NCBI GenBank assembly: GCA_001780165.1
Contig: MFFQ01000026.1
Coordinates: 10,113 to 74,112, forward strand
Direction of reading: 5' to 3'
Length of the DNA: 64,000 nucleotides
From: Candidatus Eisenbacteria bacterium RBG_16_71_46
Lineage (GTDB): Bacteria > Eisenbacteria > RBG-16-71-46
Part shown: in pieces, positions 799 through 62,329 of the stretch
How positions within the stretch are numbered: position 1 is the stretch's first letter
Layout: each line of letters begins with the position of its first letter
Program-made: the position numbers and the translations under genes
The notes under the pieces: model-generated
What the model was told of the DNA's origin: nothing
Databases searched by the model: none
The model's input: only the letters and a program-made list of their open reading frames with translations

Positions 799-847
799 GG
801 CTTGGCACCCGGATCGCGCTGTGGGCGCCGCGCGGGCGGAAGGCGCC

Positions 848-2697: not shown

Positions 2698-4174
2698 GGC
2701 GCTCGGGCACCTGCGCCGCGACGCGGTGATCTACGGCTTCGGCCAGGCGCTGGGCCGCGGCGTGCAGTTCCTGCTGGTGCCGATCTTCACCCGCGCGCTG
2801 CTCCCCGAGGTCTACGGGGTGGCCGACCTGGTGCTCGCCTATTCGCAATTCGTGGTGCTGGTGCTGGTGTTCGGCATGGACGGGGCGCTGGTGCGCTTCT
2901 TCTACCAGGAGCCCGACCGCGACGCGCGCCGCCGCATGGTGTCCACCTCGCTCGCCTGGCGGATCGGGAGCGGCGTGCTGTTCTCGCTGCTGTTCGTGGT
3001 GCTCAGCCGCTCGATGGCGGGCTCGCTCATCGGCTCCGAGGTCTACCGCAAGTACGTGACGATCGGCGCGCTCACGCTGCCGTTCTCGCTGCTGGTGCTG
3101 TTCTCCAACGACGTGCTGCGGGTGACGTTCCAGCCCTGGAAGTTCATCGCCCTCAATACCCTGCAGGCGGTGGTGACGGCCGCGCTGTCGTGGTGGCTGG
3201 TGGTGCCGCGCGACATCGGCGTGGCGGGGGTGCTCTACGGCAAGCTCGGCGGCGACGCGGTGGCGGCGCTGGCCGGACTGGCGCTCATCCGGCTCAACCT
3301 GACGCCGCGCCTGAGCCTCCGGGCGCTCGCCCGGATGCTCGCCTTCGGCTGGCCGTTGGTGCCCACCGCCTTCGCCTACGGTGTGATCTCCGCCGCCGAT
3401 CGCTTCTTCCTGCAACGCACGCGCAGCCTGGAGGAGGTCGGCGTCTACGCCGTGGCGGTCAAGTTCTTCTCGGCCGCCATGCTCGGGGTCTCGGCCTTCT
3501 CGCTCGCCTTCTTTCCCTTCGCCCACGCCCGGGCGCACGAGCCGGAGGCACCCCGGCTCTACGCGCGCGTGCTCGCGCTCTACGTCTCGCTCGGGAGCCT
3601 GGCCGCGATGCTGGTGGGGCTCTTCGCCCCCGAGGCGCTCGCCGTGCTGGTGCCGCCCGGCTACCGCGAGGCGGCGCGGCCGGCGCTGGTGCTCGGCTTT
3701 GCGGCGGTCGCCTACGGCGCTTACTATGTCGCCTGTCTCGGCGTGCAGCTGGCGCTCAAGACCCCGCACCTGATCTGGACCGCGCTGGCCGGCGCCGTGG
3801 TGGCGATCGGGGCCAACGTGGTGGCGACGCCACGGTACGGGGTCATGGGCGCGGCGGTGGCGACGCTGGCCGGCAACGTGGCGCTTGCGGTGCTCACCTA
3901 CGCGGTGTCGCAGCGCGTGTACCGGCTGCCGTATCGCGGTGCGAGGCTGGTGGCGCTGTACGCCGTCGCGGTGATCCTCGCCTGGCTGGGCCAGACGCTG
4001 GCGCCCGAGGGCGCCACGGGCGCGGCGATCAAGCTCGGTTTGGGCCTGCTGTTCGCGGTGCTGTGCGTGGCGGTGGGGATCTGGACCGAATGGGGGTCGG
4101 TGGGGAGCCCGGTCGGGGAGGGTGGGCCCCCCGGTCCGCCGGCGTCCAGGGCGATGGGCGGGCCCTCCGACTAG
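2681..4174 (+). CDS. Polysaccharide-unit flippase, Wzx-like (MOP/MATE superfamily).
   Basis: About 12 predicted TM helices. The N-terminus (GFGQALGRGVQFLLVPIFTRAL) matches the PST/Wzx family. Confidence 0.75.
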   Translation: MRRVREALGHLRRDAVIYGFGQALGRGVQFLLVPIFTRALLPEVYGVADLVLAYSQFVVLVLVFGMDGALVRFFYQEPDRDARRRMVSTSLAWRIGSGVLFSLLFVVLSRSMAGSLIGSEVYRKYVTIGALTLPFSLLVLFSNDVLRVTFQPWKFIALNTLQAVVTAALSWWLVVPRDIGVAGVLYGKLGGDAVAALAGLALIRLNLTPRLSLRALARMLAFGWPLVPTAFAYGVISAADRFFLQRTRSLEEVGVYAVAVKFFSAAMLGVSAFSLAFFPFAHARAHEPEAPRLYARVLALYVSLGSLAAMLVGLFAPEALAVLVPPGYREAARPALVLGFAAVAYGAYYVACLGVQLALKTPHLIWTALAGAVVAIGANVVATPRYGVMGAAVATLAGNVALAVLTYAVSQRVYRLPYRGARLVALYAVAVILAWLGQTLAPEGATGAAIKLGLGLLFAVLCVAVGIWTEWGSVGSPVGEGGPPGPPASRAMGGPSD

Positions 4175-4188
4175 AAAGGACGCTGGAG

Positions 4189-6243: not shown

Positions 6244-6386
6244 GCTCCGTTTGAAAACGCCCGGGGGCAAGGCGTCGCGGTCGCGCGAGGACGACCGTGG
6301 CCGACCACGCTGCGCGTGGTGCCCGGCCACGTCGGAGCGAGGAGCCGACCGCGCAACGTAGCCCTCGGGCGTTTTCGAACGGAGCC
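6243..6386. repeat. Palindromic repeat element, family A, copy 1, in inverted orientation relative to copies 2 and 3.
   Basis: The terminal inverted repeats are AGGCTCCGTTTGAAAACGCCCG and its complement CGGGCGTTTTCGAACGGAGCCT. An internal hairpin reads CGTGGCCG...CGGCCACG. The conserved core GGGCAAGGCGTCGCG is shared with 40308-40454 and 56518-56647. Confidence 0.85.
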
Positions 6387-6388
6387 TC

Positions 6389-7516
6389 GTGGACCTGGTC
6401 GTCCTGTCGGAAGTGCGCTGGAGCTACTTCCGCACCCGCAAGCAGTTCCTGCTGTCGCGCTTCCCCGAGCGCTGGCGCGTCTTCTACGCCCAGCCCCCCG
6501 CGGCGGGGACGGACGACCCGTGGCGAGCGCGGCGCGAGGGGCGCGTCACCTACTTCACGGTGCCGTTTCTCAAGCCCGGCACCACCCAGCCGCTGTACAA
6601 CCGGCTGATGCGGGCCGGCGCGGCGCGCGCCACGGTCGAGCGCTGCGCCGAATCCTGGCTGCGCCTGATGCTGGCGCGGCTCGGGGTCGAGCCGCGACCG
6701 GTGGTGCTGGCGTCCAACATCTACTGCCCCGGAGCGCTTTCGCGGCTGCCCCGGAAGTTGTTATTCTACGACTTCAATGACAGCCCACTGCAGTTCGCCG
6801 GGGTGCCGGCCTGGGCCCCGGACTACTGGCGCCGCACCCGCGACCAGGTGGACGCGTTCTTCGTCGTGTCCGAGTACTACCGGCGCGAACTGAGCGCGCA
6901 GACGCGGAGGCCCGTGATCCTGCTCGGTAACGGCGTCGAGGTCGACCACTTCCAGGCCCCGCGGGCGGTTCCGCCCGAGTTGGCGTCCCTGCCGCGCCCG
7001 CTCATCGGTTACGTCGGCCTGCTCTCGCATTTCCTCGATTTCGAGACGCTCGAGGCCCTGCGCCAGGCGCGCCGCGGCGGCACGCTGGTCCTGGTCGGCC
7101 CCGGCACCCCGGCCACCGACGCCGCGGTGCGGGAGCTGGCCGGGCGCGAGGGGGTGGCGGTCCTGGGCCCCAGGCCCTATGCGGAGATCCCGGCCACCAT
7201 GCAGGCCCTGGACGTCGGGGTCATTCCTTTTCGGGCGAACGATCCCTTCGTGCAGGGTATCAATCCCAATAAGGTCTACCAGTACCTCGCCTCCGGCCTT
7301 CCCGTGGTAACCACCCCGGTGCTCGATCTCGAACCCCGCCCTCCGCACCTTCAGTTCGCCGCCGGGCCCGCCGCGATGCGGGCGGCGGTGGAGCGGGCGC
7401 TGGACGCACCGCCGGATCGCGCGGCCCGCGTGGCGCTGGCCCGCTCCCACGATTGGGGAGGGCTCGCGAGCCGGATGGTCGAGGAGATCGAGCGGCGGAT
7501 CCCCGCGGCCGGCTGA
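6389..7516 (+). CDS. Glycosyltransferase family 1/4 (TuaH-like).
   Basis: GT-B fold with GYVGLLSHFLDFE and VIPF...NPNKVYQYLASGLPVV. The GTG start is 2 nt after repeat copy 1. Confidence 0.7.
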   Translation: MDLVVLSEVRWSYFRTRKQFLLSRFPERWRVFYAQPPAAGTDDPWRARREGRVTYFTVPFLKPGTTQPLYNRLMRAGAARATVERCAESWLRLMLARLGVEPRPVVLASNIYCPGALSRLPRKLLFYDFNDSPLQFAGVPAWAPDYWRRTRDQVDAFFVVSEYYRRELSAQTRRPVILLGNGVEVDHFQAPRAVPPELASLPRPLIGYVGLLSHFLDFETLEALRQARRGGTLVLVGPGTPATDAAVRELAGREGVAVLGPRPYAEIPATMQALDVGVIPFRANDPFVQGINPNKVYQYLASGLPVVTTPVLDLEPRPPHLQFAAGPAAMRAAVERALDAPPDRAARVALARSHDWGGLASRMVEEIERRIPAAG

Positions 7517-7555
7517 CCGGCCGCCCACCCACCCCCTCCAACCCCGGAATCCTGC

Positions 7556-9991
7556 ATGGCCGATCGCAAGGCAGCAAAGCGTGAGAACGTGCGCCGCGAG
7601 GCGCCGCGGCCGGGCGCGCGCGGGGCGAGGTCCCCCTTCACGCTCGGCAGCGGATGGGCGGCGGTACTGCTGGCGCTGCTCGTCGTGATCTTCTTCCACC
7701 AGGTGCTCCTGGAGGGGAAGACCTTCGTCGCCCCCGACACCACCGCGCCCGCCGGCTTCGTCCGCATGGGGGAGAAGGCGCTCTACCAGGACCACGTCTA
7801 TCCCCTGTGGAATCCGTACGTCTTCCTCGGCATGCCCTCGTTCGCGAGCGGCGCCTACAATCCGTTGATCTATCCTCCCGACTGGCCGCTGGCGCTGCTG
7901 CAGAAGGTGGTGCCGCTGCCCGACATGACCTGGCTGCTGCTCTACTATTTTCTCGGCGCGCTGTTCCTGTTCCTGCTGGCGCGGGAGTGGGGGGCGCGGC
8001 CGGAGGGCGCGCTGCTCGGCGCGGTCGCGTTCGTGTTCGCGCCCAACCTGGTGGCGGTGGGCTCGCACGGCCACGGCAGCCAGCTGGTGGACTCGGCCTA
8101 CCTGCCGCTCCTGTTGTGGCTGGCCACCCGCTGGATGCGTGGTGGCCGGGTCTCCGACCTGGCCTGGCTCGCCCTCGCGGGCGGATTCCAGCTGCTGCGC
8201 GGCCACGTGCAGATCTGCTTCTACACCTGGCTCGCGGTCGGGCTCTACGTCGCGGTGGAATGGGGGGCGGCCCTGCGCTCGCCGGGCACGCTGCTGCCGC
8301 GGCTCGCGCGCGGCGCCGGGATCGCGGCGGCGGCGGCGGTGGCCTTCGGGCTCGCCGGCTTCTACAACCTGCCGCTGCGCGACTACGCCCAGCACTCGAT
8401 CCGCGGCGCGGGGGCGGGGGGCGGCGTCGGCATGGACTACGCGACCCAGTGGTCCATGGCGCCCTACGAGCTGCCCGCGACCGTGATCCCCGGCTGGGTG
8501 GGCTTCGGCGGCCGGAGCTACTGGGGGGCGATGCCGTTCACCGACTACCCGAACGCCTACATCGGCATGGTGGCCGTGGTGCTGGCGCTGCCCGCCTTCC
8601 TCGCCGGCGGCGCGGTGCGGATCTTCGCCCTGATCCTCGGGGCACTCGCCCTGCTCATCTCCTTCGGCAGCCACTTCCCGCTCTACGGTTTCCTCTACGC
8701 GCACCTGCCGCTGTTCAACAAGTTCCGCGTGCCGGTGATGGTCATCCTCCTCTTCCAGCTCGCGGCGGCGCTGGGGCTGGCGTGGGGCTGGAGCACCGTG
8801 CTCGCGGCGGGGGGCACGCGCACCGACGCCTCGCGGCGACTCGGGCGACTGCTCGTCGGCACCGCCGTGGCACTGGGCCTGATGCTCGTCTTCGGCGTGC
8901 TGCTGCAAGGCGCCTGGCGCCACGCCTACGAGCAGGCGGCGCTCTCCCATCGGCAGGCCTTCAGCGCCGATCTCGCGCGAATCGCGTTCCGCGGGGTCAG
9001 CGGCGACATCCTGCGCGCGGGCGTGCTGGGGCTGATCGCGATCGGCGCCATGGTGCTCGCGGCGCGCGGGCGGATCGCGCCGTCGCTGGCGAGCGTCGCG
9101 GTGCTGCTGCTGCTGCTGATCGAGTTGTGGCCGGTCAGCGGGCGGGTGATGGGGCCCGTCATCGGACCCGTGAACACCTACGGCCTCGAGACGGGACGCG
9201 ACGATGTCGTCGAGTTCCTCGAGAAGGCCGGTCCGCCCGGGACCTTTCGCGTCTTCCCGATGGACGAGTTCCAGAGCAATCGCTTCGCCGGCTTCGGCAT
9301 CGCCTCGCTCGGCGGCTACCACGCGGCCAAGCCGCGCCTCTTCCAGGACTTCCTCTCCGACCGCATGGAGGACAACCTGCCCTGGCTCCGGCTGCTCAAC
9401 GTGCGCTACATCATCGTCCAGCAGCCGCTTTCCTCGGTGCCACCGTTCGCGCGCGAGATCTTTCGCGGATCGGCGATCGTCTACGAGCACCTGCTCGCCC
9501 TGCCGCGCGCGACGGTGGTCGGGAGTTATCGCGTGGTGCGGCCGGCCCGCGCCATCCTCGACTCGGTGGCGTCGGGGCGTGAGGACCCGGCCGGCGTCAC
9601 CAACCTCGAAACGGATCCGCAGCTCACGCTCGGGCCGGTGGACGGGGCGCAGGCCGCGATCGAGTCCTACGATCTCAACCGCGTCGCGGTGCGGGTGACC
9701 ACGCCGGGACCCGCGCTGCTGCGGCTGGCCGACCTCTGGTACCCGGACTGGCGGGCAACCGTGGACGGTCGGGAGGCTCCGGTGCTGCGGGCCGACTACC
9801 TGCTGCGCGCCGTGCCGGTGCCCGCGGGCGAGCACCGCGTCGTCTTCGAGTTCCGCTCCCCCGCGGTGAGGCGCGGGCTGCTGCTGTCGCTGGCGAGCCT
9901 GGCGCTGGTGCTGGCGGCATTCGGGGTGGATCTCGTTCGCCGGCGTCGCGCGGCACGGCCCGTGGCTCCTGGGGCGGTGGAGGGGAACTGA
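7556..9991 (+). CDS. YfhO-family integral membrane glycosyltransferase (GT-C-like).
   Basis: 811 aa with many TM helices and a large C-terminal extracytoplasmic domain. This is the YfhO architecture. It sits next to a polyprenol-P-sugar synthase gene. Confidence 0.7.
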   Translation: MADRKAAKRENVRREAPRPGARGARSPFTLGSGWAAVLLALLVVIFFHQVLLEGKTFVAPDTTAPAGFVRMGEKALYQDHVYPLWNPYVFLGMPSFASGAYNPLIYPPDWPLALLQKVVPLPDMTWLLLYYFLGALFLFLLAREWGARPEGALLGAVAFVFAPNLVAVGSHGHGSQLVDSAYLPLLLWLATRWMRGGRVSDLAWLALAGGFQLLRGHVQICFYTWLAVGLYVAVEWGAALRSPGTLLPRLARGAGIAAAAAVAFGLAGFYNLPLRDYAQHSIRGAGAGGGVGMDYATQWSMAPYELPATVIPGWVGFGGRSYWGAMPFTDYPNAYIGMVAVVLALPAFLAGGAVRIFALILGALALLISFGSHFPLYGFLYAHLPLFNKFRVPVMVILLFQLAAALGLAWGWSTVLAAGGTRTDASRRLGRLLVGTAVALGLMLVFGVLLQGAWRHAYEQAALSHRQAFSADLARIAFRGVSGDILRAGVLGLIAIGAMVLAARGRIAPSLASVAVLLLLLIELWPVSGRVMGPVIGPVNTYGLETGRDDVVEFLEKAGPPGTFRVFPMDEFQSNRFAGFGIASLGGYHAAKPRLFQDFLSDRMEDNLPWLRLLNVRYIIVQQPLSSVPPFAREIFRGSAIVYEHLLALPRATVVGSYRVVRPARAILDSVASGREDPAGVTNLETDPQLTLGPVDGAQAAIESYDLNRVAVRVTTPGPALLRLADLWYPDWRATVDGREAPVLRADYLLRAVPVPAGEHRVVFEFRSPAVRRGLLLSLASLALVLAAFGVDLVRRRRAARPVAPGAVEGN

Positions 9992-10707
9992 TGGAGAAGC
10001 TGGTCATCATCCCCACCTACGACGAGTGCCAGAACATCGGGCCGATGCTCGACCGGCTGCTCGCCCTGCCTCACGACCTTCACGTGCTGGTGGTGGACGA
10101 CCGTTCGCCGGATGGGACCGCCGAGGTCGTCCGGGGGCGCATGGCCCGCGAGCCGCGCGTGCACCTCATCGAGCGCCCGGGCAAGCAGGGGCTGGGCTCG
10201 GCCTACCGCGAGGGGTTCCGCTACGCCCTCGAGAACGGCGCCGAGTACATCTTCGAGATGGACGCGGACTTCTCGCACGACCCCGATGCCATCCCCGAGT
10301 TCCTGCGGCACGCGGACGAGGTCGACCTGGTGCTCGGCTCCCGCTATCTCAAGGGGGTGACGGTCGTCAACTGGCCTTTGCGACGCCTGATCCTCTCGTA
10401 CGCCGCAAACCTGTACACTCGTGTGGTGACCGGGATGCCGGTCAACGACGCGACGGGCGGCTTCAAGTGCTTCCGGCGCCGGGCCCTCGAGGGCATCCGT
10501 CTGGACCGCGTGCAATCGGACGGCTACGCATTCCAGATCGAGGTGTCGTTCAAGTGCTGGAAGCGCGGCTTTCGGCTCCGGGAGATCCCGATCATGTTCG
10601 TCGATCGGCGCGCCGGGGAGTCCAAGATGAATCGGCGGATCATCGTCGAAGCCGCCTGGAGGGTGTGGCAGCTGCGGCTGCGCGATCTGTTCGGCCGATT
10701 GGAGTGA
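9991..10707 (+). CDS. Polyprenol-monophosphate sugar synthase (GT2, dolichol-phosphate mannosyltransferase-like, CsbB/GtrB-like).
   Basis: GT2 motifs (IIPTYDE, VVDDRSPDGT, DADFSHDP). The length is 238 aa. ATG overlaps the YfhO stop (TGATG). Confidence 0.85.
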   Translation: MEKLVIIPTYDECQNIGPMLDRLLALPHDLHVLVVDDRSPDGTAEVVRGRMAREPRVHLIERPGKQGLGSAYREGFRYALENGAEYIFEMDADFSHDPDAIPEFLRHADEVDLVLGSRYLKGVTVVNWPLRRLILSYAANLYTRVVTGMPVNDATGGFKCFRRRALEGIRLDRVQSDGYAFQIEVSFKCWKRGFRLREIPIMFVDRRAGESKMNRRIIVEAAWRVWQLRLRDLFGRLE

Positions 10708-10714
10708 GTGAAAC

Positions 10715-12961
10715 ATGAAGAGGATGCTCCCGGCGCTGCTCGCGGGCCTGCTGCTCGGGGCCGCGCCTTCGCCCGCCGCGGCCGCGGGCGCGTGGAACAC
10801 GTACCTGCACGCCACCGTGTACAACGACCTGCTCGCCACGCGTGACACGGTGTGGTGCGCGACCGGGGACGCCGGCCTGTTGATCTTCGACCGGACGGCG
10901 AGCGACTTCGTGCCGGCCCTGCGGCGCGAGCCCGGCGGGCTCGCCAGCAACCGCCTCACCTCGCTCGCCGTGGACCGGACGGGCCGGCTGTGGATCGGCA
11001 CCTCGGACAAGGGCGTGAGCCGCCTGTCCGCCGACCACGCCTCCTGGGGCCTGGTGAACAAGTTCGACGGCCTGCCCTCCGTGGCGATCAACGTGCTCGA
11101 GGCCGACGGCGACTCGGTATGGATCGGCACTGATTCCGGCATCGCGCTGTGGGACGGATCGCAGATCGCGGGCGCGCTGCCCGACGGCGTCAATCCGTCG
11201 CCGTTCGCCAGCGACAACATCGTCGGCATCGTCGTCCGCGCGGACTCGCAATTCATCGCCACCAGCGGGGGCATGTACCTGCGGCGCCGGCTTCCGGGCG
11301 GGGGCGACGACATCAGCACGATCAACGGCGGCTTGCTGTCCACCACGATCCAGGGGCTCGCTTCCGACGGCTACGCGGTGTTCGCGCGGGTCCAGGATCA
11401 GCCGTACCTCTTCAACTTCTCGACCGGGCAGTGGCAGCAGACCGGCGGCGTCGGGGCGGTCTATCGGATCCGGGACGGCAACGGCCTGATCACGCTCACC
11501 AGCAGCCTCGGCGTCTACCGCTGGACCGGCATCCAGTGGACGCTGCTCTCCGGCTCGCCGGTGTCGGGGAACGCGGCGTCCACCATCCTGGCGGCCGCGG
11601 CGGATTCCACCGGGCGCAGGTTCGTCGCCAACGGCGCCGGTCTGTACGAAGAGCCCGCCGCGCCCGGGGCGTGGATGCTGCACACGCCCGAGGGACCGCC
11701 CGGAAACGTCCTCATCAACCTGGCGATGGACGGCCCGCGCATCTACGCCATCACGTTCGATCAAGGCGTCGGCCGCTTCGATGGCACACGGTGGCGCAAC
11801 TGGTTCCCGACGCCGGCGAGCTGTCAGACCGGGTGCGACACCACATTCCTCAATCCGCTGTTCAGCATCGCGGCGCTCGTGGACGAGCAGGGACGCAAGT
11901 GGATCGGGTGCTGGTCCGTGGCGATGGAGATCTTCGACGATTCGGTCTCGCCCCCTCAGTTCGTGCGACCCACGTATCCGCCCGGCGAAGGCATCAACCC
12001 GGAGCGCCACACCTTCGCGGTGGCCTCGGCGCTCGATTCGACGTACGGGCACTGGTTCGGGATGGACACGCCGGATCTCGGCAATCCCGAGCTGGCGCCG
12101 ATCGGGCTCGACTACTACGACGCCACCGGCGCCTGGGTCGCCAACTACCGGCCGGAGAACACTCCCTCCATGCCCGGCGGCAAGATCCGCGGACTGGCCG
12201 TGGATCGCCGGGGCCGGGTGTGGGTGGGCTACTCGGGCCAGGGTGTCGCGTACTTCGACGTCCCGGCCCTCGGCGATCAACTCGACCTCCACCCGGTGAC
12301 GGGCACGTCCAGTCTCGACGTCCAGGGGATGGCGGCGATCGGCGACACGCTCTGGGTCTTCGCCAACAACGAGCTGCAGCAGTACTCGGCCGCCACCGCG
12401 CAGCTCAAGCGGTCGTTCCCGGTGCCCGCCGGCTCGGCCGGCAACTTCGCGATCTATCCCCTGGCCGTGGCGCGCGACGGCAGCGTGTGGCTCGGCACCG
12501 TCAGCGGCATCCGCGTCTACGAGCCGGACGGACGCACGCGCGCCGACTACACCACGGCCAATTCGCCGCTCGCCAGCGACGAGGTGCGCAGCATCCGGAT
12601 CAACCCCTCGACCGGGCTGGCGTGGATCGCCACCGCCGCCGGGCTCAACTCGTTCGATCCGGGGTACGTGCCGCCGCCGCCCCCGCAGCTTGCCCGGCTG
12701 GACGCGCGCGTGTACCCGAATCCCGCCCCGCTCTCGGCGATCGGGGTATCGCTCAGCGTGCTCGGCAACGCCTCGGACTACCGAGGCGAGATCTACGATC
12801 TCTCCGGTCGCGTGCTGCGCCGTTTCAGCGGAGTCGGCAATCGGCGCATGGTGTGGAACGGTCGCGACGGCGACGGCCGGGTGGTGCGACCGGGCATCTA
12901 CTTCATCCGGTTCGAGGCGGGCGGGAGGACGTCGGTCGCGCGTGTCGTGCTGCTGCGTTGA
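10715..12961 (+). CDS. Secreted beta-propeller (two-component-regulator propeller-like) protein with a T9SS-type C-terminal sorting domain.
   Basis: N-terminal signal peptide (MKRMLPALLAGLLLGAAPSPAAAAGA). Repeated WIGT/GL propeller blades. The last ~80 aa (YPNP...IYDLSGRVLRR...WNGRD...GIYFIRF...VLLR) match the Por/T9SS CTD (TIGR04183-like) or FlgD-Ig-like domain. Confidence 0.7.
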   Translation: MKRMLPALLAGLLLGAAPSPAAAAGAWNTYLHATVYNDLLATRDTVWCATGDAGLLIFDRTASDFVPALRREPGGLASNRLTSLAVDRTGRLWIGTSDKGVSRLSADHASWGLVNKFDGLPSVAINVLEADGDSVWIGTDSGIALWDGSQIAGALPDGVNPSPFASDNIVGIVVRADSQFIATSGGMYLRRRLPGGGDDISTINGGLLSTTIQGLASDGYAVFARVQDQPYLFNFSTGQWQQTGGVGAVYRIRDGNGLITLTSSLGVYRWTGIQWTLLSGSPVSGNAASTILAAAADSTGRRFVANGAGLYEEPAAPGAWMLHTPEGPPGNVLINLAMDGPRIYAITFDQGVGRFDGTRWRNWFPTPASCQTGCDTTFLNPLFSIAALVDEQGRKWIGCWSVAMEIFDDSVSPPQFVRPTYPPGEGINPERHTFAVASALDSTYGHWFGMDTPDLGNPELAPIGLDYYDATGAWVANYRPENTPSMPGGKIRGLAVDRRGRVWVGYSGQGVAYFDVPALGDQLDLHPVTGTSSLDVQGMAAIGDTLWVFANNELQQYSAATAQLKRSFPVPAGSAGNFAIYPLAVARDGSVWLGTVSGIRVYEPDGRTRADYTTANSPLASDEVRSIRINPSTGLAWIATAAGLNSFDPGYVPPPPPQLARLDARVYPNPAPLSAIGVSLSVLGNASDYRGEIYDLSGRVLRRFSGVGNRRMVWNGRDGDGRVVRPGIYFIRFEAGGRTSVARVVLLR

Positions 12962-12977
12962 CCGGGCGAGGGACCTC

Positions 12978-14006
12978 GTGACCCCCCATCGCCTGGAGGC
13001 CCCGCCCGCCGGGTGGGACCTTCTGCTCGAGCGCGACCCCAATGCCTCGCCGACGCACCGGCCGGAGGTCTGGGCCGCGCTCGCGGCGTCGCTGCCCGGC
13101 ATGCGCCCGTGCTTCATCGCCGCCGAGGAGGACGGCCGGATGCGCGGCGGCGCGCCGGTGCTGATCGAGCGCCGGGCGGGGATGCACTGGCTCCACGCGC
13201 TGCCCTTTCTGCTGCCGGGGACACCCCTCGCCGAGCCCGGCGCCCATCGCGCGGTGGATGCTGCCGTCGCCGAGGGGCTGGCGTCGCTGCAGCGCGAGCT
13301 GGGGGCGGTCGGCGGCGAATGGGCGCTCTACCGTCCCCAGGGCCCGCCGCTCGATCCGGCCGCCGCGGCCCGCGTGAGCGGCGAGAACCGGATGTTCGAG
13401 ACTGCGGTGATCGACCTCGACCAGGGGCTCGAGCCCGTGCGGCGTCGCATGAACCGCAAGACCCGCCAGGAGCTGGGGCGCGCGCGGGCCAACGGTCTGA
13501 CGTTCGGCGAGGAGCCGGGGATGCTGGCGGATGCCTACGCGCTGCATCTGAGCCAGTCGCGGGGCTGGTCCTGGAATCGCCCGCCGCCACTCGAGCTGCT
13601 GCGGCGCCTCATGCATTCGACGGCCGCAGGCGTCTCACCCGTGGCGCGTCTCTTCACGGTGCGCGACGCGCGCGGGCTGCTGACCGCGGCGCTGGTGCTC
13701 GACCACCGGCACGAGTCCATGGTGTGGTGGAGCGGGTCGCATCGCGACGCCCGGGAGCGGCACGCCTTCGGCTTCCTGCTGTGGTCCATCGCCGAGTGGG
13801 CACAGCGCGCGGGCCGCGCCCGCCTCAACCTCGGCGCCAGCGGCGGCAGCGAGGCGGTCTGGGCGTTCAAGCGGGCGCTGGGGGCCACGGGGCAGCGCTA
13901 CCCGGTGCGCTGGCTCGACGCGCGTCACGCGACCCCGGTCGGGCGCCTGGCCGCCGGGATCCAGGCGCGCCTGCGGCGCGGCCGAGTCCGCGGAGAGCCG
14001 GCGTGA
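12978..14006 (+). CDS. FemAB-like/GNAT-fold acyl- or aminoacyl-transferase (BioF2-like).
   Basis: About 340 aa with the duplicated GNAT-like pattern seen in FemXAB/peptidoglycan-bridge enzymes. GTG at 12978 is the first start after the upstream stop. The 12690 start in the track overlaps the previous gene. Confidence 0.55.
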   Translation: MTPHRLEAPPAGWDLLLERDPNASPTHRPEVWAALAASLPGMRPCFIAAEEDGRMRGGAPVLIERRAGMHWLHALPFLLPGTPLAEPGAHRAVDAAVAEGLASLQRELGAVGGEWALYRPQGPPLDPAAAARVSGENRMFETAVIDLDQGLEPVRRRMNRKTRQELGRARANGLTFGEEPGMLADAYALHLSQSRGWSWNRPPPLELLRRLMHSTAAGVSPVARLFTVRDARGLLTAALVLDHRHESMVWWSGSHRDARERHAFGFLLWSIAEWAQRAGRARLNLGASGGSEAVWAFKRALGATGQRYPVRWLDARHATPVGRLAAGIQARLRRGRVRGEPA

Positions 14007-15088
14007 GGATCGCCACGCTGTCCAACGCCGCGGTCGTCCATACGCAGCGCTGGGTCGAGCACTTCCGCGCGCGCGGGCACGAGGTGGGACTGTGGTCGCT
14101 CGAGCCGGGGCCGCCGCGGCTCGGCGCGCGCCCCCTGCCGCGCCTGCCGCTCCCGGGATTCCTGCGCTACCCGCTCGCCGCGCCCGCGCTGCGCCGCGAG
14201 CTCGCGGCCTTCGCGCCCGACGTGGTGGATGCGCACTTCGTTCCCAACTACGGACTCCTGGGCGCGCTGGCGGGCCGGCGGCCGCTCGCGGTCACGGCGT
14301 GGGGGTCCGACCTGCTGGTGGTTGGCCCGCGCGACGCGTTGCAGCGGGCGCGCGCGCGGTTCGTGCTCCGGCGCGCGGATCTGGTGCTCGCCGACAGCGG
14401 CAACCTCGCCGCCGCGGCGCGCCGGCTCGGCGCCGCGCCGGCCCGCGTCCGCGAGATCCCCTGGGGCGTGGACCTGCGGCGTTTCCGCGACCGCGACGCG
14501 CGCGAACCGGGACTGCTGCTGAGCGCGCGCATGCACGAGCCGGTCTACGACATTCCCACGGTGCTGCGCGGGGCGGCCGTGGTGCTCGCGCGCCTGCCCC
14601 ACGCGCGCCTGGTGGTGACCGGCGACGGCAGCCTGCGGCCGGCGCTCGAACGGATGGCGGCGGAGCTGCTGCCGCGCGGGCGCGTCACCTTCACCGGGCG
14701 GCTCGAGCTGGACACCCTCGCCGCTTGGCTGGCGCGCGCCGAGGTCTACCTCTCGGCGTCGCGGTCGGACTCGACTTCGCTCTCGCTGCTCGAGGCGATG
14801 GCGTGCGGCGCCGTTCCGGTGGTGAGCGACCTCGAGGGCAACCGCGAATGGGTGGGCGAGGGTGACGGCGCGCGGCTGTTCCCGCCGGGCGATGCCGCCG
14901 GCCTCGCCGCGGCGGCGCTGCGCGCGCTCGACGATCCCGGCTGGACCGCGGCGGCGCGCGCGCGCAATCGCGCGGTCGTGACGGAACGCGCGGATCGGGA
15001 GGCCAACATGGCCCGGATCGAGGCGCTGTTCGCGGAGTTGGCCGGAGCGGCGCGCGAGCCCGCGGCGGGGCGGAGCGCGAACCGGTGA
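14003..15088 (+). CDS. Glycosyltransferase family 4.
   Basis: GT-B C-terminal domain with SLSLLEAMACGAVPVVSD. The GTG start overlaps the upstream stop (GTGA). Confidence 0.75.
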   Translation: MRIATLSNAAVVHTQRWVEHFRARGHEVGLWSLEPGPPRLGARPLPRLPLPGFLRYPLAAPALRRELAAFAPDVVDAHFVPNYGLLGALAGRRPLAVTAWGSDLLVVGPRDALQRARARFVLRRADLVLADSGNLAAAARRLGAAPARVREIPWGVDLRRFRDRDAREPGLLLSARMHEPVYDIPTVLRGAAVVLARLPHARLVVTGDGSLRPALERMAAELLPRGRVTFTGRLELDTLAAWLARAEVYLSASRSDSTSLSLLEAMACGAVPVVSDLEGNREWVGEGDGARLFPPGDAAGLAAAALRALDDPGWTAAARARNRAVVTERADREANMARIEALFAELAGAAREPAAGRSANR

Positions 15089-16371
15089 GCGCCCGCCGCC
15101 TGCTGGTGCTCTGCTACTTCTATCCGCCGCTCGCGGGGGGCGGAGTGCACCGCGTGCTCGGCTTCACCCGCTACTTGCCGCGGCACGGCTGGGCGTGCAC
15201 CGTGGTGTGCGCGGGGGAGGACGACTACTGGGTGACCGACTCGAGCCTGCTCGCGCGCGTCCCGGCCGAGACCGCTGTCGTGCGGGTGCGGGGCGGCAGC
15301 GCGCTCTCGGCGTGGCTGGCGTGGCGTCGGCGCGATCGCGGGCGGAGGCCGGGAGGCGTATTCGCCGGGCTGCGGCGGCTGAGCGACTGGTTCCTGATGC
15401 CGGACTCCTACGTGGGCTGGGCTCGGCGGGCGCGCAGGGTGGCCGCGGGGCTGCTGGCCGCCGGCGACTTCGATGCGGTGCTCTCCAGCTCGCCGCCGGA
15501 CAGCGTGCACCTCGCGGCGCTCGACGTGCGCCGCCGCTTCGGGCTGCCCTGGGTGGTCGACTTCCGTGACCCCTGGATTCCCCTCTACTTCCGAGAGCCG
15601 CCGAGCGGCTGGCACCGCGCGCGGCAGGCGGCGCTCGAGCGCCGCGTGATCGAGGGTGCCGACCTCGTGCTCACCGCCTCCGCCACGCACGCCGGAATGC
15701 TCGGCGCGCGCTCCGGCGCGCGCGCGCGCCGCGTGCTCCACCTGGCGAACGGCTACGAACCGGATGCCGCGACCGCGGCGCCGCCCGCCGCGGCGCTCGC
15801 GGAGTCGTTCCTCGTGGTGTTCACCGGCACGCTGTCCCAAATGCCCGACGCCGAGGTGTTCTTCGAGGCCCTCCACGACCTGTTCGCGCGCCGCTCCGAG
15901 GCGCGGCGCCGCCTGCGGGTGGTGATCGCCGGCCCCTTCGAGTCCCACTACGAGGACCGCGCGCGCGCGCTCGGGCTCACCGGGATCGTGCGCTTCGCAG
16001 GACCCCTGGCGCACGGCGAATCGCGCGCGCTGCAGCGGCGCGCCGACCTGTTGCTGCTGTGGAAATTCCGCGGGTTCCCCACCATGGTGCCGGGCAAGGT
16101 CTACGAGTACCTGGATGCCGGGCGCCCGCTGCTGGGATTGCTCGAGGCGCAGGACGAAGTCGCCGAGCTGGTGCGGCGGGCGGGCGGCACCGTCGTCGCG
16201 CCCGGCGACCGCTCCGCACTCGCGGACGCGATCGAGCGCCGCTACCTCGCGTGGTGCGAGGGCGGCGCCGCCGCCTCGGCGCGGCCGGATTGGCTCGTGG
16301 ACCACACGCGCGAGGCCCTGACGGTCCGGCTGGCTTCGGCCCTGGACGCGCTGGTGGAGGCCCGAGCGTGA
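15085..16371 (+). CDS. Glycosyltransferase family 4.
   Basis: The N-terminus YFYPPLAGGGVHRVLGF and a C-terminal EYLDAGRPLL fit a GT4. GTGA overlap with the upstream gene. Confidence 0.75.
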   Translation: MSARRLLVLCYFYPPLAGGGVHRVLGFTRYLPRHGWACTVVCAGEDDYWVTDSSLLARVPAETAVVRVRGGSALSAWLAWRRRDRGRRPGGVFAGLRRLSDWFLMPDSYVGWARRARRVAAGLLAAGDFDAVLSSSPPDSVHLAALDVRRRFGLPWVVDFRDPWIPLYFREPPSGWHRARQAALERRVIEGADLVLTASATHAGMLGARSGARARRVLHLANGYEPDAATAAPPAAALAESFLVVFTGTLSQMPDAEVFFEALHDLFARRSEARRRLRVVIAGPFESHYEDRARALGLTGIVRFAGPLAHGESRALQRRADLLLLWKFRGFPTMVPGKVYEYLDAGRPLLGLLEAQDEVAELVRRAGGTVVAPGDRSALADAIERRYLAWCEGGAAASARPDWLVDHTREALTVRLASALDALVEARA

Positions 16372-17924
16372 GCGCCGACCCGCGGCCGCCGCTGAGCCGC
16401 GTCGAGCGCATCGGCCTGCTCGGGGCCCTCGCGCTCGTGATGGTGCTGATGTGGCCGCTGCGCCATTACCTCACCGACGACACCTTCATCCACCTCCAAT
16501 ACGCGCGCCACCTGGCTCGGGGCGAGGGCCTGGTGTTCAACCTGGGCGAGCGCGTGTACGGGTGCACCAGCCCGCTGTGGGTGGGGCTCATCTCCGCCGG
16601 CGTGGCGCTCGGCCTCGACGGCCTCCGGGTCGCGCGGGTACTCGGCCTGCTCGCGACCCTCGCGTCGGTCGTGCTGTTCTTTCAGCTCATGCGCCACACC
16701 CTGCGCACGCCCGGACTGCGCGTCCTCGCCACCCTGACGTGGGCCGCGCACGCCTGGATGCTGCGCTGGTCGCTCTCGGGGATGGAGACCCCGCTCGCGG
16801 TCGCGCTGACCCTCGCCGGCTTCGTGGCCTTCACCTCCGGGCCGCGATGGGGCACGCGAGCGGCGCTCAGCGGAACGTCGTGGGCGCTGGCCGCGCTCGC
16901 GCGGCCGGAGGGGGTCTTCCTGCTGATGCTGTGGGGCCTGTATCTGCTGCTCGATGCCGATGGACGCGACGGGCTGCGGCGGGCGGTGTTCGGCGTGCTG
17001 CCCGCGCTCGCGATCTACGGCGGCTGGCTGGTGTTCGCGCGCTCCTACTTCGGGACCTTCTGGCCGCAGACGCTGTCTGCCAAGACCGCGGGCGCCACCG
17101 GTCTCGCCTACGAGATCGGAAACCTCTGGCGCCAGGCGCGCATCGTCGGGGCGAGCGACGGCGTGCTGGTGGTGCTGCTGGTGGCCGCGGTTGCGGCCAC
17201 CCTGGTCACGGCCGGCCGGCGCCCGTGGCGCTGGGAGCCGGCGCGGCTGCTGCCCTGGGCCTGGACGCTGGGGCTGCCGGCGCTCTACGTCGCGCGCGGC
17301 GTGCCGGTGATCTCGCGCTACCTGCTCGTGCTGCTGCCGGTGCTGGCGATGCTGGCCTGGCGCGCGGCCGAAGGCTGGTGGACGGGAGGGGAACCCGACC
17401 CGCGCCGGGTGCGGCGCGCGCTGGCGCTCGGTGGCATCGTGGCGGTGCTGTCGCTCGCGCTCAATCTCACGGTCTACCGCGCGGTGGTGGTGCCGCAGGT
17501 GCGCTCGTTCACCGCCGGGCTCGAACGCACGCTGGTGTGGTGGGGGCGCTGGCTCGGCGAGCACGCCGCGCCGGGTGACGCCGTCGCGACGCCCGACATC
17601 GGGGCGATCGGCTACTTCAGCGGCCGGCGGGTGCTCGACCTCGGAGGCCTGGTGACGCCCGGCATGGTGCCGTTGCTCGAGCAGGCGCCCGAGGAGGACG
17701 TCATCGCCGGCTTCGGCTTCGCCGCCGTGGGCCGCCCGGCGTTCCTGGTGGATCGCGACCCGGCGCCCGACCGCCTGCTCGCGGGCGGGCGTTACGCGGC
17801 GTGCCTGGTCGCGCTCGGTCACGCCGAGGCGCCGAACCTCGGCATCGCGCGGCCGGGCCCCGTGATCTACACCGTCTATCGGATCCGCTGGTCGGCGTAC
17901 GACTCGCTCCGAGTCGGGGGCTGA
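16368..17924 (+). CDS. GT-C fold membrane glycosyltransferase (ArnT/PMT, GT83/GT39-like).
   Basis: Multi-TM protein. A DDTFIH motif sits in the first extracytoplasmic loop, the catalytic DD/DE motif of ArnT/PMT-like enzymes. GTGA overlap with the upstream gene. Confidence 0.65.
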   Translation: MSADPRPPLSRVERIGLLGALALVMVLMWPLRHYLTDDTFIHLQYARHLARGEGLVFNLGERVYGCTSPLWVGLISAGVALGLDGLRVARVLGLLATLASVVLFFQLMRHTLRTPGLRVLATLTWAAHAWMLRWSLSGMETPLAVALTLAGFVAFTSGPRWGTRAALSGTSWALAALARPEGVFLLMLWGLYLLLDADGRDGLRRAVFGVLPALAIYGGWLVFARSYFGTFWPQTLSAKTAGATGLAYEIGNLWRQARIVGASDGVLVVLLVAAVAATLVTAGRRPWRWEPARLLPWAWTLGLPALYVARGVPVISRYLLVLLPVLAMLAWRAAEGWWTGGEPDPRRVRRALALGGIVAVLSLALNLTVYRAVVVPQVRSFTAGLERTLVWWGRWLGEHAAPGDAVATPDIGAIGYFSGRRVLDLGGLVTPGMVPLLEQAPEEDVIAGFGFAAVGRPAFLVDRDPAPDRLLAGGRYAACLVALGHAEAPNLGIARPGPVIYTVYRIRWSAYDSLRVGG

Positions 17925-17986
17925 TCGGTGCACGCGCGTGCAGTAGGATTCGCGCGTCGCGCGGGAATCATCCGCCTCGTTTTTCT

Positions 17987-18015
17987 TTGACAGGGGCTTG
18001 CAGCGCGCCTAATGT
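17987..18015 (+). promoter_or_regulatory. Candidate sigma70-type promoter of the dcw cluster (Pmra).
   Basis: TTGACA at 17987-17992, a 17-nt spacer, and TAATGT at 18010-18015. It lies about 70 nt upstream of mraZ. Confidence 0.55.
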
Positions 18016-18085
18016 GCCGCCTCGTGGGGACCAGTGGGGAATTGTGGAGCCCAGTGGTAGAGAGTCGTGAACCGAGGCGGGAACC

Positions 18086-18538
18086 ATGTCGTCCTTCTAC
18101 GGCGGAGAGATCCACGCGATCGACCACAAGGGTCGCGTCAGCATCCCCGCGACGCTGCGTCGCGCCGAGGGGAAGCGGACGTCGATCCCGCGGTTCTTTC
18201 TCGCGCCCGGCTTCGACGGCTGTCTCGCGCTCTACAGTCCCGAAGGATGGAACAAGATCGAGGAGCAGCTGCAGGCGCTGCCGCTGGGGGACCGCGAAGC
18301 CCGCGCCTTCCAGCGCGCCTTCCTGCGCCACGTGTGCAAGGTGGCGGTGGATGCACAGGGACGGATCACCATCCCACCGTCGCTGCTGAGCCTTGCGGGT
18401 TTGGGCAAGGAAGCCCTCCTGCAAGGCTTGATGAATCGCATCGAGATCTGGAACCCCGAGCGCTTCACCGGCGAATCGGATGCGGTCGAAGGCAAGCTCG
18501 AGGACATGGCGGCGCGGGTGATCGGAGGCCGGTCGTGA
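18086..18538 (+). CDS. mraZ: Transcriptional regulator MraZ.
   Basis: Two DXXXR-type MraZ repeats (IDHKGRVSIP and DAQGRITIP). Its position at the head of the dcw cluster is typical. Confidence 0.9.
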   Translation: MSSFYGGEIHAIDHKGRVSIPATLRRAEGKRTSIPRFFLAPGFDGCLALYSPEGWNKIEEQLQALPLGDREARAFQRAFLRHVCKVAVDAQGRITIPPSLLSLAGLGKEALLQGLMNRIEIWNPERFTGESDAVEGKLEDMAARVIGGRS

Positions 18539-18987
18539 GCAGCACGTTCGCACCCCAGCCGCGCGTGGCCCTGGTGATGAATCTCGATCTGAGCCACGGT
18601 CGCCACGGCGCCACGGCCCGGATCGAGCTTCACGAGCGCGACCAGGGACGGGTGGCGCTGGTCCAGCTCGGCGGCTGGCTCGACGCCGTGGCACTCGGCC
18701 GGCTCGAGGATACGTTGCGCGACCTCGAGCTGCGGGGCGTGTCCCAGCTCCTCCTCGACTGCGCCGCCGTGCGCCACATCGACTACCGCCTGGTGCCGGC
18801 CCTGGTCGCGGCCCTCGATCGCTTCGAGGTGCGCGCGGGCGGGTGCGTGGTGTGCGGGCTCTCGAACTACCTCCGCGACCTCTTCAGGCTCGCGGGCTGC
18901 GAATCGAGCATGCGCTGCTGGCCGTCAGCCGCCGAGCTGCTCGAGCCGCCCGCCGCTCCCGAGCCCGGTCGTGAGCGCGCGTCATGA
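18535..18987 (+). CDS. STAS-domain protein (anti-sigma factor antagonist-like).
   Basis: About 150 aa with a SpoIIAA-like pattern (ARIELHERDQGRVALVQLGGWLDAVALGRLEDTL...LLLDCAAVRHIDYRLV...AGG). GTGA overlap with mraZ, and the 3' end overlaps rsmH. Confidence 0.55.
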   Translation: MSSTFAPQPRVALVMNLDLSHGRHGATARIELHERDQGRVALVQLGGWLDAVALGRLEDTLRDLELRGVSQLLLDCAAVRHIDYRLVPALVAALDRFEVRAGGCVVCGLSNYLRDLFRLAGCESSMRCWPSAAELLEPPAAPEPGRERAS

Positions 18988-19900
18988 GCCGGTCCTGCTG
19001 GCCGAGACCCTGTCGTTCCTCGCGAACGGCGGGGGGCTCTACCTCGACGCCACGCTGGGCGACGGAGGGCATGCCGGGTCGCTGCTCGAGCGCGAGCCGG
19101 GCGCCCGCGTGCTCGGCTGCGATCGCGATCCCGCCGCACTCGCCTTCGCGCGCGAGCGGCTGTCGCGATTCGGGGACCGGCTGGTGATCGCCCACGCGAG
19201 CTTCCGTGAGCTGCCCGACGCCCACGCGCGGGCGGGAGGCGAGCCGTTCACCGGCGCGCTCTTCGATCTCGGCTTGTCGTCGCGACAGATCGACGATCCC
19301 GCCCGGGGCATGAGCTTCATGGCGACCGGGCCGCTCGACCTGCGCATGGACCCGACGCGCGGCGAGACCGCCGTGGAGCGGCTGCGACGCGCGGAGGCCG
19401 ACGAGGTGGCGGAGGTGCTGCGGACCCACGGCGACCTGCGCGAGGCGCGCCGTCTGGCGCCGGCGCTGGTGGCCGAGGCGCGGCGCGGAGGACTGGCGAC
19501 GACGCGCGACCTCGCCGCCCTGATCGATCGCGCGCTCGGTGGACGGCCGCATCCGCGCCGCCACGCCCGCGTGTTTCAGGCGCTGCGGATCTGGGTCAAC
19601 GACGAATCCGCGGATCTCGATGCCGCGCTCACCTGGCTGCCGGGGGCGATGATGCCCGGCGGTGTGGTCGTCACCCTCGCCTATCACTCGGGCGAGGATC
19701 GTAAGATCAAGCGCGCGCTGCGCGGCGGGAACCGCCTCCGCCCGTCGCGTCGCCTGCCGGAGTTGACCGAGGAGCGGCCTCCCGAGGGGCCGTGGCAAGA
19801 GCTCACCCTGAAAGTCGTGACCCCCTCGAACGAGGAGAGGGCCTCGAACCCGCGCGCACGGAGCGCGAGGCTGCGGGCCTTTCGGAGGAAGTCCACATGA
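18971..19900 (+). CDS. rsmH: 16S rRNA (cytosine1402-N4)-methyltransferase RsmH (MraW).
   Basis: HEPVLL N-terminus with the DATLGDGGH and FDLGLSS motifs. Length 309 aa. Confidence 0.9.
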   Translation: MSARHEPVLLAETLSFLANGGGLYLDATLGDGGHAGSLLEREPGARVLGCDRDPAALAFARERLSRFGDRLVIAHASFRELPDAHARAGGEPFTGALFDLGLSSRQIDDPARGMSFMATGPLDLRMDPTRGETAVERLRRAEADEVAEVLRTHGDLREARRLAPALVAEARRGGLATTRDLAALIDRALGGRPHPRRHARVFQALRIWVNDESADLDAALTWLPGAMMPGGVVVTLAYHSGEDRKIKRALRGGNRLRPSRRLPELTEERPPEGPWQELTLKVVTPSNEERASNPRARSARLRAFRRKST

Positions 19901-20334
19901 GAGCTGCACTCCGTCGCCCCCGTCCGTCGTGGCGCGCCACCGAGACGCGCCCGTTTCGACCCGAGCTGTGGCTCATCGCCGCAGCCGTGGTCGGCATGCT
20001 GCTGGTCGAGGTGTGGCAGAGCTCGCGCGTCACGGAGCTCAGTCTCGGGCTCGATCGCACCCGCACGGCGCTCGTGCAGGCGCAGGCGCACTACCAGTAC
20101 GCCCGCGCCGATCTCGACCGCCAGGCCACCCGCGCCGAACTCGCCCCGCTCGCATCCGCGCTGGGGCTGGCGCCAGCCGACGCGCAGCAGATCGTCGTGC
20201 TGCCCTCCGAGTACCTGGCCGCGGAGCGGCCGGGCGAGCGGCAGGGACGCACCGAACCGCTGCTCGCATGGGCGGAAAGGGCTTCGCGTGTTCTCGTGCC
20301 GGAAGCGACGGCGCGCGATCGCGCAGGACACTGA
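19897..20334 (+). CDS. ftsL: Cell division protein FtsL-like.
   Basis: Small bitopic protein with one TM (LWLIAAAVVGMLLVEVW) followed by a coiled coil. It sits between rsmH and ftsI. ATGA overlap with rsmH. Confidence 0.7.
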   Translation: MRAALRRPRPSWRATETRPFRPELWLIAAAVVGMLLVEVWQSSRVTELSLGLDRTRTALVQAQAHYQYARADLDRQATRAELAPLASALGLAPADAQQIVVLPSEYLAAERPGERQGRTEPLLAWAERASRVLVPEATARDRAGH

Positions 20335-60277: not shown

Positions 60278-60410
60278 GTGGGACGTGGTGGAGCGGTCCA
60301 AGGCGCATCCCCCATGCGTGTGGAGCCCCCGAAAGGCTAGCAGTCGCGGGGGTCGTGTCAAGCCGCAGTCGCGGCATGGACGCGGCGGCGGGTTGAGGCT
60401 ATTCTCGGCT

Positions 60411-61102: not shown

Positions 61103-62329
<1,227 letters not shown>

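Follow-up and report, generated by a model that had tools for sequence, protein, structure and literature searches.

A STAS-domain gene fixed between mraZ and rsmH in at least three phyla probably encodes a regulator of the cell-division operon

In a stretch of 64,000 nucleotides (nt) of Candidatus Eisenbacteria bacterium RBG_16_71_46 (contig MFFQ01000026.1, hereafter the window), we observed that the cluster of genes for division and the cell wall (dcw) contains a gene for a 150-residue STAS-domain protein (18535..18987, + strand), which comes second in the mraZ operon, ahead of rsmH. The analysis of related genomes showed that this is no local insertion: in at least three phyla the gene is fixed in the operon throughout the lineage. 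Its product has the STAS fold and belongs to a dcw-embedded subfamily carrying the motifs HxDYR and GLSxY, in which the serine that is phosphorylated in SpoIIAA is replaced by an aromatic residue. Rather than being an anti-sigma antagonist, the protein probably regulates the cell-division operon.

The open reading frame (ORF) runs on the + strand from a GTG at 18535 to a TGA at 18985-18987 and comprises 150 codons plus the stop. The TGA of mraZ and the GTG of the STAS gene share bases as GTGA, which gives a 4-nt overlap. A GGAGG ribosome-binding site, read from the sequence, lies within the 3' end of mraZ (18523..18527, + strand), 7 nt 5' of this GTG, and GGAG-rich junctions were seen again in related loci. 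At the other end, the last 17 nt of the gene lie inside rsmH, whose GTG is at 18971. The overlap GTGAGCGCGCGTCATGA (18971..18987, + strand) is therefore dual-coding and gives the C-terminus ..(R)ERAS* of the STAS protein in one frame and the N-terminus MSARH of RsmH in the other. In other words, the conserved ..ERAS C-terminus is an alternative reading of the start region of rsmH, and the ending ..xAS of the STAS protein was conserved solely in the lineages having the 17-nt overlap. An earlier reading of this DNA made from the letters alone (the sequence-only reading) had described a 150-residue ORF between mraZ and rsmH with these same coordinates, GTGA and 17-nt overlap, and all of them were confirmed.

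The coding potential of the ORF was tested because the window is rich in G+C (about 73%) and contains long ORFs in many frames over the same bases, which might suggest a spurious ORF or an annotation artefact. When a codon-usage log-odds score was trained on the long genes of the window, the STAS frame scored +51.9 (as compared to +53.6 for mraZ), the other two + frames -75 and -116, and the reverse frames across the same ORF +4, -27 and -134. A search at E<=1e-3 recovered 322 homologues; an identical protein is on deposit from Candidatus Eisenbacteria bacterium RBG_16_71_46, labelled hypothetical, and the gene boundaries are the same in the public gene calls of three independent assemblies. 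Mean pairwise distances among Eisenbacteria were 0.51 for the STAS protein, 0.47 for RsmH, 0.53 for FtsI and 0.72 for MraZ; the protein is thus conserved like RsmH and FtsI, and more than MraZ. The ratio of nonsynonymous to synonymous substitution rates (dN/dS) of the gene is about 0.45. Considering the frame-specific codon usage, a Pfam match above threshold, a confident fold, hundreds of homologues with conserved motifs, the conserved gene order in related dcw clusters and a dN/dS below 1, the spurious ORF is already refuted and keeps virtually no probability: the ORF is, as the sequence-only reading had supposed, a genuine gene and not a chance product of GC-rich DNA. RNA elements beneath the ORF were also considered. 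Rfam gave only sub-threshold matches there (c-di-GMP-II-GCG, 28.7 vs 47.9 bits, and mir-61), which we took as chance.

According to Pfam, STAS is the sole domain of the protein. The gathering scores of 22.6 for the STAS family (PF01740) and 29.2 for STAS_2 (PF13466) were exceeded, with 38.7 bits over residues 37-134 and 33.3 bits, respectively. The AlphaFold2 (AF2) model, built with 24 homologues, had a mean predicted local distance difference test score (pLDDT) of 82 and a predicted template modelling score (pTM) of 0.75, and its topology is the canonical beta1-beta2-alpha1-beta3-alpha2-beta4-alpha3. A Foldseek search against the PDB returned 35 matches at E<=1e-3, every one a STAS protein or domain. 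The top match was SpoIIAA bound to SpoIIAB (1til_B; E 2e-7, template modelling score 0.75 on the target), and RsbV (6m36), TM1442, a mycobacterial antagonist and RsfB came next. The protein therefore has the STAS fold and is a member of the STAS superfamily by both hidden Markov model and fold, in agreement with the sequence-only reading. Residues 10-35 (..LNLELSHGRHGAxARxELHER; 18562..18639, + strand) form an N-terminal extension that is predicted to contain an extra beta strand in addition to beta1; the two AF2 strands, E10-20 and E26-35, have a pLDDT of about 89-90. This extension is conserved in Eisenbacteria, and the Myxococcota members of 125-128 residues are too short for it.

The segment ..fmDSsGlg.. 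of SpoIIAA aligned without gaps to ..hiDYrlvp.. of the STAS protein, and phosphorylatable Ser58 of SpoIIAA pairs with Tyr84 (codon 18784-18786, + strand). The same pairing was obtained with single-sequence alignments by phmmer to SpoIIAA (1tid, 1th8) and with profile alignments to SpoIIAA (E 2e-6), including that of B. subtilis (1auz); for RsfB (8ih8) it was obtained with the single-sequence alignment. In the AF2 model Tyr84 opens helix alpha2. It belongs to the HxDYR motif (codons H81-I-D83-Y84-R85; 18775..18789, + strand), located at the beta3-alpha2 junction. The second family signature, GLSxY (codons G108-L-S110-N-Y112; 18856..18870, + strand), is at the beta4-alpha3 junction and is immediately preceded by Cys107; its columns are invariant or nearly so in the alignments of both Eisenbacteria and Myxococcota/Latescibacteria. 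The residues invariant in both groups are D75, H81, D83, Y84, R85, S110, Y112 and G121. The two loop-to-helix junctions where these invariant residues lie form the partner interface of SpoIIAA in the SpoIIAA-SpoIIAB structures. The Eisenbacteria proteins also carry conserved cysteines: among 24 aligned proteins of this group, C76 (at the end of beta3), C107 (at the end of beta4) and C128 are invariant and C122 is nearly so. The contexts of C76 and C128 (DC and RCWP) were found in none of 122 other family members.

When 300 family sequences were surveyed, HxDYR occurred in 287 and HxDFR in four, and the motif was missing in the other nine, so that serine or threonine occupied the position of Tyr84 in none (0/291) of the motif-bearing sequences. 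Judged from these alignments, the canonical phospho-acceptor serine is lost and the protein would not be phosphorylatable at that site, contrary to the sequence-only reading, which had assumed a phosphorylatable STAS protein. Since Phe occurs occasionally, the aromatic ring seems to be more important at position 84 than a phosphorylatable hydroxyl. A phospho-tyrosine switch at Tyr84 was considered as well, and it is weakened by the four natural Phe sequences and by the lack of a linked kinase.

These results bear on the possibility that the protein is a canonical anti-sigma antagonist, which together with an RsbW/SpoIIAB-type kinase and a PP2C phosphatase encoded at 57839-60301 would link sigma-factor partner switching to cell division. 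SpoIIAA, RsbV and RsfB are indeed its best structural matches, many homologues are annotated as 'anti-anti-sigma factor' in the databases, and a SpoIIE-domain protein is present in the window. However, the phospho-acceptor position is Tyr, rarely Phe, and never Ser/Thr in the 291 sequences; TIGR00377 (anti-anti-sigma) gave 30.3 bits, under its cut-off of 53.45, and TIGR02886 gave 23.5 bits, under its cut-off of 114.75. Moreover, the 52 genes called in the window include none for an RsbW/SpoIIAB-type kinase or a sigma factor, and in the 14 related loci with Pfam listings the called genes include none for an anti-sigma kinase, a sigma factor or a phosphatase. The sole HATPase_c protein of the window is a PAS-HisKA histidine kinase, which adjoins a sigma-54-type response regulator (61103-63680 for the pair, + strand).

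The substrates of PP2C enzymes are phospho-Ser/Thr residues. The SpoIIE/PP2C protein of the window (819 residues; 57839-60301, - strand), which the sequence-only reading had put forward as the cognate phosphatase, is of this Ser/Thr type and would find no such site on the STAS protein; its gene is 39 kb away from the STAS gene, on the opposite strand and without a gene-order link to it in the window. These observations do not support the assignment. As for the name PDZ-PP2C given to it, the C-terminal SpoIIE/PP2C domain was clearly recovered (1e-39), but the PDZ part was not, PDZ_6 being sub-threshold (18.7 bits vs 27, E 0.0015) within about 600 N-terminal residues that have no assignment. The gene adjoins csrA (60493-60720, + strand) and is near the histidine kinase and response regulator pair. 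On the evidence of the aligned sequences, the missing Ser/Thr largely refutes the canonical antagonist, which we consider very improbable; the link between partner switching and division, as first proposed, is left with no phospho-serine, no linked kinase and no sigma factor.

With respect to SpoIIAA and RsbV, the protein shares the fold and the size class, has them as best structural matches (1til_B, 6m36) and carries its conserved residues at the same beta3-alpha2 and beta4-alpha3 partner-binding junctions. It differs from them in having an invariant Tyr within HxDYR in the place of Ser58, in having nearby no gene for a partner kinase, a sigma factor or a dedicated phosphatase, in its sub-threshold score with TIGR00377, in the location of the gene in the dcw operon instead of a sigma-factor operon and, for the Eisenbacteria form, in the extra N-terminal beta strand.

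The distribution of the gene was analyzed by a genome scan with one genome per GTDB species and by a profile search of 1.8 billion representative proteins. The genome scan gave 57 loci with relatives, most of them in records titled Candidatus Eisenbacteria. All 56 loci with sufficient flank had the same order, namely a 518-residue membrane protein, mraZ, the STAS gene, rsmH, an ftsL-like gene and ftsI. The STAS/rsmH overlap was exactly 17 nt in 55 of these 56 Eisenbacteria loci, and in the 56 loci mraZ and the STAS gene either overlapped by 4 or 1 nt or were at most 7 nt apart. The profile search found 70 representatives at E<=1e-10, of which 24 reached E<=1e-30; the weaker matches consisted of generic or multi-domain STAS proteins and of a set of proteins of 115-180 residues that share HxDYR and GLSxY. 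When the context of distant members was looked up, the order mraZ-STAS-rsmH was found in 11 cases out of 11 (two Myxococcales-type contigs, Archangium violaceum, Latescibacteria DG_63 and seven others). The Archangium violaceum locus belongs to a complete genome (CP069338.1, Myxococcota), and that of Latescibacteria DG_63 to a metagenome-assembled genome (MAG). Cluster membership places the gene also in cultured species of Archangium, Cystobacter, Melittangium and Vitiosangium. A 178-residue variant (P0172 type) was considered as a possible Eisenbacteria paralogue located elsewhere in the genome; this was discarded, as all ten of its metagenome loci again had the order mraZ-STAS-rsmH.

Outside Eisenbacteria the STAS gene and rsmH are set apart by short gaps and do not overlap. 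The upstream gene also varies, being a glycosyltransferase or membrane protein gene in Eisenbacteria and Latescibacteria and others in Myxococcota, so that mraZ and rsmH are the only constant neighbours of the STAS gene across phyla. The family is therefore a STAS subfamily defined by HxDYR, GLSxY and its position between mraZ and rsmH. The sequence-only reading had called the gene 'inserted', which is misleading for a gene that is fixed in the operon across at least three phyla. In E. coli, in many Firmicutes and in Mycoplasma, mraW/rsmH comes directly after mraZ (bioRxiv 10.1101/2022.02.09.479790). The loci described here resemble this mraZ-rsmH pair in the flanking genes, in an operator of GTGG repeats and in the downstream order ftsL-ftsI, and differ from it in the third gene fixed between the two. 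We found no literature on a STAS gene associated with mraZ, rsmH or the dcw cluster, and the terms 'tyrosine' and 'cell division' are absent from the STAS-only review PMC8256260. The genes themselves are already public under generic labels, namely 'STAS domain-containing protein', 'anti-anti-sigma factor' and, for some members at the Joint Genome Institute (JGI), 'MlaB component', and the arrangement is broader than an observation made at a single locus. The last two labels are probably misleading.

Three loci (L014, L041 and L052) have the Eisenbacteria-type order and 54-69% identity, but come from MAGs titled Saccharimonadaceae, Verrucomicrobiia and Acidiferrales; they are probably mis-binned contigs or mislabelled MAGs. 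We also observed that the STAS gene and rsmH have start junctions (18525-18540 and 18961-18976, + strand) identical at 15 of 16 positions (GAGGCCGGTCGTGAGC vs GAGCCCGGTCGTGAGC). Such near-identity might be read as the scar of an insertion into an ancestral mraZ/rsmH GTGA, but this is the less likely explanation, since other loci share GTGAGC or less. Six similar two-copy repeats occur within the same 1.2 kb, and the likeness is probably due to chance together with the constraint on start contexts.

The genes flanking the STAS gene were identified with scores above the cut-offs. The dcw transcriptional regulator mraZ (18086..18538, + strand) matched Pfam MraZ (3e-26) and TIGR00242 (105 bits), and rsmH (mraW; 18971..19900, + strand), encoding the 16S rRNA m4C1402 methyltransferase, matched Methyltransf_5 (1.2e-74) and TIGR00006 (226.6 bits). 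The next gene (19897..20334, + strand) gave no match in Pfam and is considered ftsL-like from its conserved position, with ftsI downstream; its ATG overlaps the rsmH stop as ATGA, and locus L059 has a public gene call at the equivalent position. Therefore mraZ, the STAS gene, rsmH and ftsL are chained by overlaps of 4, 17 and 4 nt. No terminator-like site was found between mraZ, the STAS gene and rsmH. As read from the sequence, the overlaps of the STAS gene with mraZ and rsmH imply co-transcription and translational coupling, and the embedding in the dcw operon proposed by the sequence-only reading is upheld by the conservation of the junctions in 56 related genomes.

Upstream of mraZ there is a predicted MraZ operator of four GTGG boxes with a 10-bp period (GTGGGGaccaGTGGGGaattGTGGAGcccaGTGGTA; 18024..18059, + strand). 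A search with the MraZ-box pattern gave two overlapping matches as compared to 0.02 expected, and this is the single site in the 64 kb. The boxes fit the published consensus of the repeats bound by MraZ (PMC12957436; bioRxiv 10.1101/2022.02.09.479790). With this predicted operator in front of the operon, the STAS protein would be made under the control of MraZ. In Archangium violaceum, GTGG-type boxes with a 10-bp period (GTGGAtcggaGTGGGaagggGTGGCgtaatGTGGA) are present upstream of mraZ (locus L063, 3420-3480), and the operator therefore seems to go with the three-gene module in Myxococcota too. Just before the GTGG boxes of the window, a TTGACA (17987-17992) and a TAATGT (18010-18015) separated by a 17-nt spacer were noticed by eye; the promoter scan did not call this site, whose -10 matches at three of six positions. 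A terminator-like hairpin followed by a T-run (17961-17975, + strand) lies between the upstream polysaccharide cluster and the mraZ promoter region.

The reading that we favour is that the STAS protein is a non-phosphorylated third component of the mraZ-rsmH module, which would act by binding a protein of the module, MraZ as first choice and RsmH as second. We regard it as a serious possibility that stays just short of probable. The protein would be made from an MraZ-autoregulated transcript, translationally coupled to both neighbours. It keeps the classical partner-binding face of STAS proteins, at the beta3-alpha2 and beta4-alpha3 junctions, with the invariant HxDYR/GLSxY patch in place of the phospho-serine switch. 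Since the phospho-serine is replaced by this patch, its action would most likely be direct, phosphorylation-independent protein binding, without a partner switch driven by a kinase and a phosphatase. If MraZ is the target, the STAS protein may tune its oligomeric state or its DNA binding, and hence the transcription of the dcw operon. The input may be a ligand that binds to the polar patch; for Eisenbacteria alone, it may instead be the redox state of C76, C107, C122 and C128.

MraZ is preferred as target for three reasons taken from the literature. No input signal for MraZ is named in PMC12957436 or in bioRxiv 10.1101/2022.02.09.479790; the activity of MraZ depends on its oligomerisation (PMC12957436); and in E. 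coli MraZ is toxic, an effect counteracted by its downstream gene (bioRxiv 10.1101/2022.02.09.479790). The role of this partner gene, rsmH/mraW, is described as unclear (PMC12957436; bioRxiv 10.1101/2022.02.09.479790). A more specific form of this proposal, which we consider speculative though conceivable, is that the STAS protein is the signal-input subunit of MraZ and works as a phosphorylation-independent anti-repressor or co-repressor through the HxDYR/GLSxY face, coupling a cue to the transcription of the division and cell-wall operon. The cue might be a nucleotide or a cell-wall precursor bound at the polar patch, to which thiol redox would be added in Eisenbacteria. If true, this would be a partner switch with a transcription factor at its centre in place of the sigma/anti-sigma pair. 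We also considered a DNA-mimic anti-repressor, like AbbA for AbrB, and discarded it on account of the isoelectric points of the family, which have a median of 8.4 and span 5.1-10.3.

Several observations weigh against a third component that binds MraZ or RsmH. In a mirror-tree test on 44 Eisenbacteria loci, a noisy method, the partial correlations were weak, 0.18 for STAS-MraZ and 0.02 for STAS-RsmH, as compared to 0.68 for FtsL-FtsI, taken as positive control; the STAS protein correlated more with the 518-residue membrane protein (0.41) and with FtsI (0.31), although both these values are weak. Natural fusions of MraZ or RsmH with the STAS protein were absent among 150 representatives; some longer database entries looked like STAS fusions, but turned out to have mis-called starts that read through an alternative frame of mraZ. 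Redox control cannot be the mechanism of the whole family, because the cysteines are restricted to one lineage. Finally, gene order alone fits a role in methylating the ribosome or in the divisome as well as it fits the regulation of MraZ: we infer the function of the STAS protein, its partner and its input from gene order only, and MraZ and RsmH are candidate partners.

The order of the genes might also point to an accessory subunit of RsmH, which would control C1402 methylation or RsmH stability without a direct effect on MraZ or on transcription. In fact, rsmH is always the immediate downstream neighbour, its 17-nt overlap with the STAS gene is the most rigidly conserved junction in Eisenbacteria, and MlaFB is an example of a STAS protein serving as the obligate partner of an enzyme (PMC7367683). 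This possibility has to face the mirror-tree value of 0.02 and the short gaps that replace the overlap outside Eisenbacteria, and we judge it quite unlikely. In most bacteria RsmH functions with no partner of this kind.

The mirror-tree values are instead highest with the membrane protein and FtsI, as might be expected if the STAS protein were a small-molecule or redox sensor acting on FtsL, on FtsI or on the 518-residue membrane protein, and not on MraZ or RsmH. The conserved polar patch of His, Asp, Tyr, Arg, Ser and Tyr resembles a site for a ligand or partner, the binding of nucleotides by STAS has been proposed (PMC8256260; PMC5613929), and the Eisenbacteria group has four conserved cysteines, for which RsfA is a redox precedent. 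Nevertheless, the method is noisy and gave weak correlations, the gene preceding mraZ is not the same in all phyla, with mraZ and rsmH alone being constant, and the cysteines are absent outside the core group. Such a sensor appears rather unlikely.

The proposal of a phosphorylation-independent component of the mraZ-rsmH module can be compared to three other systems. RsfA of Mycobacterium is an anti-SigF antagonist that is inactivated by a disulfide between two cysteines and not by phosphorylation (PMC7693655). Like RsfA, the protein described here is STAS-only and, in Eisenbacteria, carries conserved C76, C107, C122 and C128. Unlike it, no anti-sigma factor is linked to the gene, whereas RsfA acts on the anti-sigma factor UsfX/RsbW, and the cysteines are missing in the Myxococcota and Latescibacteria members; judged from sequence, a resemblance to RsfA is possible for the Eisenbacteria branch only. 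In CapS, a STAS domain controls the repressor of an adjacent immune operon (PMC13373217). The use of a STAS domain to control a repressor at a neighbouring operon, instead of a sigma factor, is what we propose here as well. However, CapS has its own winged helix-turn-helix domain, a phospho-serine (Ser54) and a partner kinase, CapK, whereas the protein of the dcw operon is STAS-only, has no serine at the site and no adjacent kinase, and MraZ is encoded by a separate gene.

MlaB stabilises the MlaF ATPase of the MlaFEDB lipid transporter and regulates it. It is likewise a small, operon-encoded, stoichiometric STAS partner that works without sigma partner switching, and 6xgz and 6xgy are among the Foldseek matches. 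On the other hand, 6xgz_B (E 3.8e-4) is a poorer match than SpoIIAA/RsbV (2e-7 for 1til_B), no mla or ABC transporter genes are adjacent, and every locus has mraZ and rsmH as the neighbours.

The gene upstream of mraZ in the window (16368-17924, + strand) encodes the 518-residue protein, which has no match in Pfam and was taken as a membrane protein from its sequence; in Eisenbacteria loci it is invariably the gene that precedes mraZ. A polysaccharide/glycosyltransferase cluster on the same strand (1-17924, +) comes before the dcw operon and includes GT2, GT4, a Polysacc_synt flippase, an asparagine synthase, and Acetyltransf_6/FemAB-like and YfhO-like genes. Acetyltransf_6, Polysacc_synt and GT4 genes precede mraZ also in the Latescibacteria-type loci L064-L067.

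Since mraZ and rsmH head the most conserved cluster of bacterial genes for division and the cell wall, a third gene fixed between them in Eisenbacteria, Latescibacteria and cultured Archangiaceae (Myxococcota) is a concrete candidate for the missing input to MraZ or RsmH. This candidate input carries a signalling fold in which the switch residue has been replaced, and it is open to study in culturable myxobacteria. It also adds to the STAS-only proteins a kind other than the serine-phosphorylated, partner-switching types treated in the review PMC8256260.

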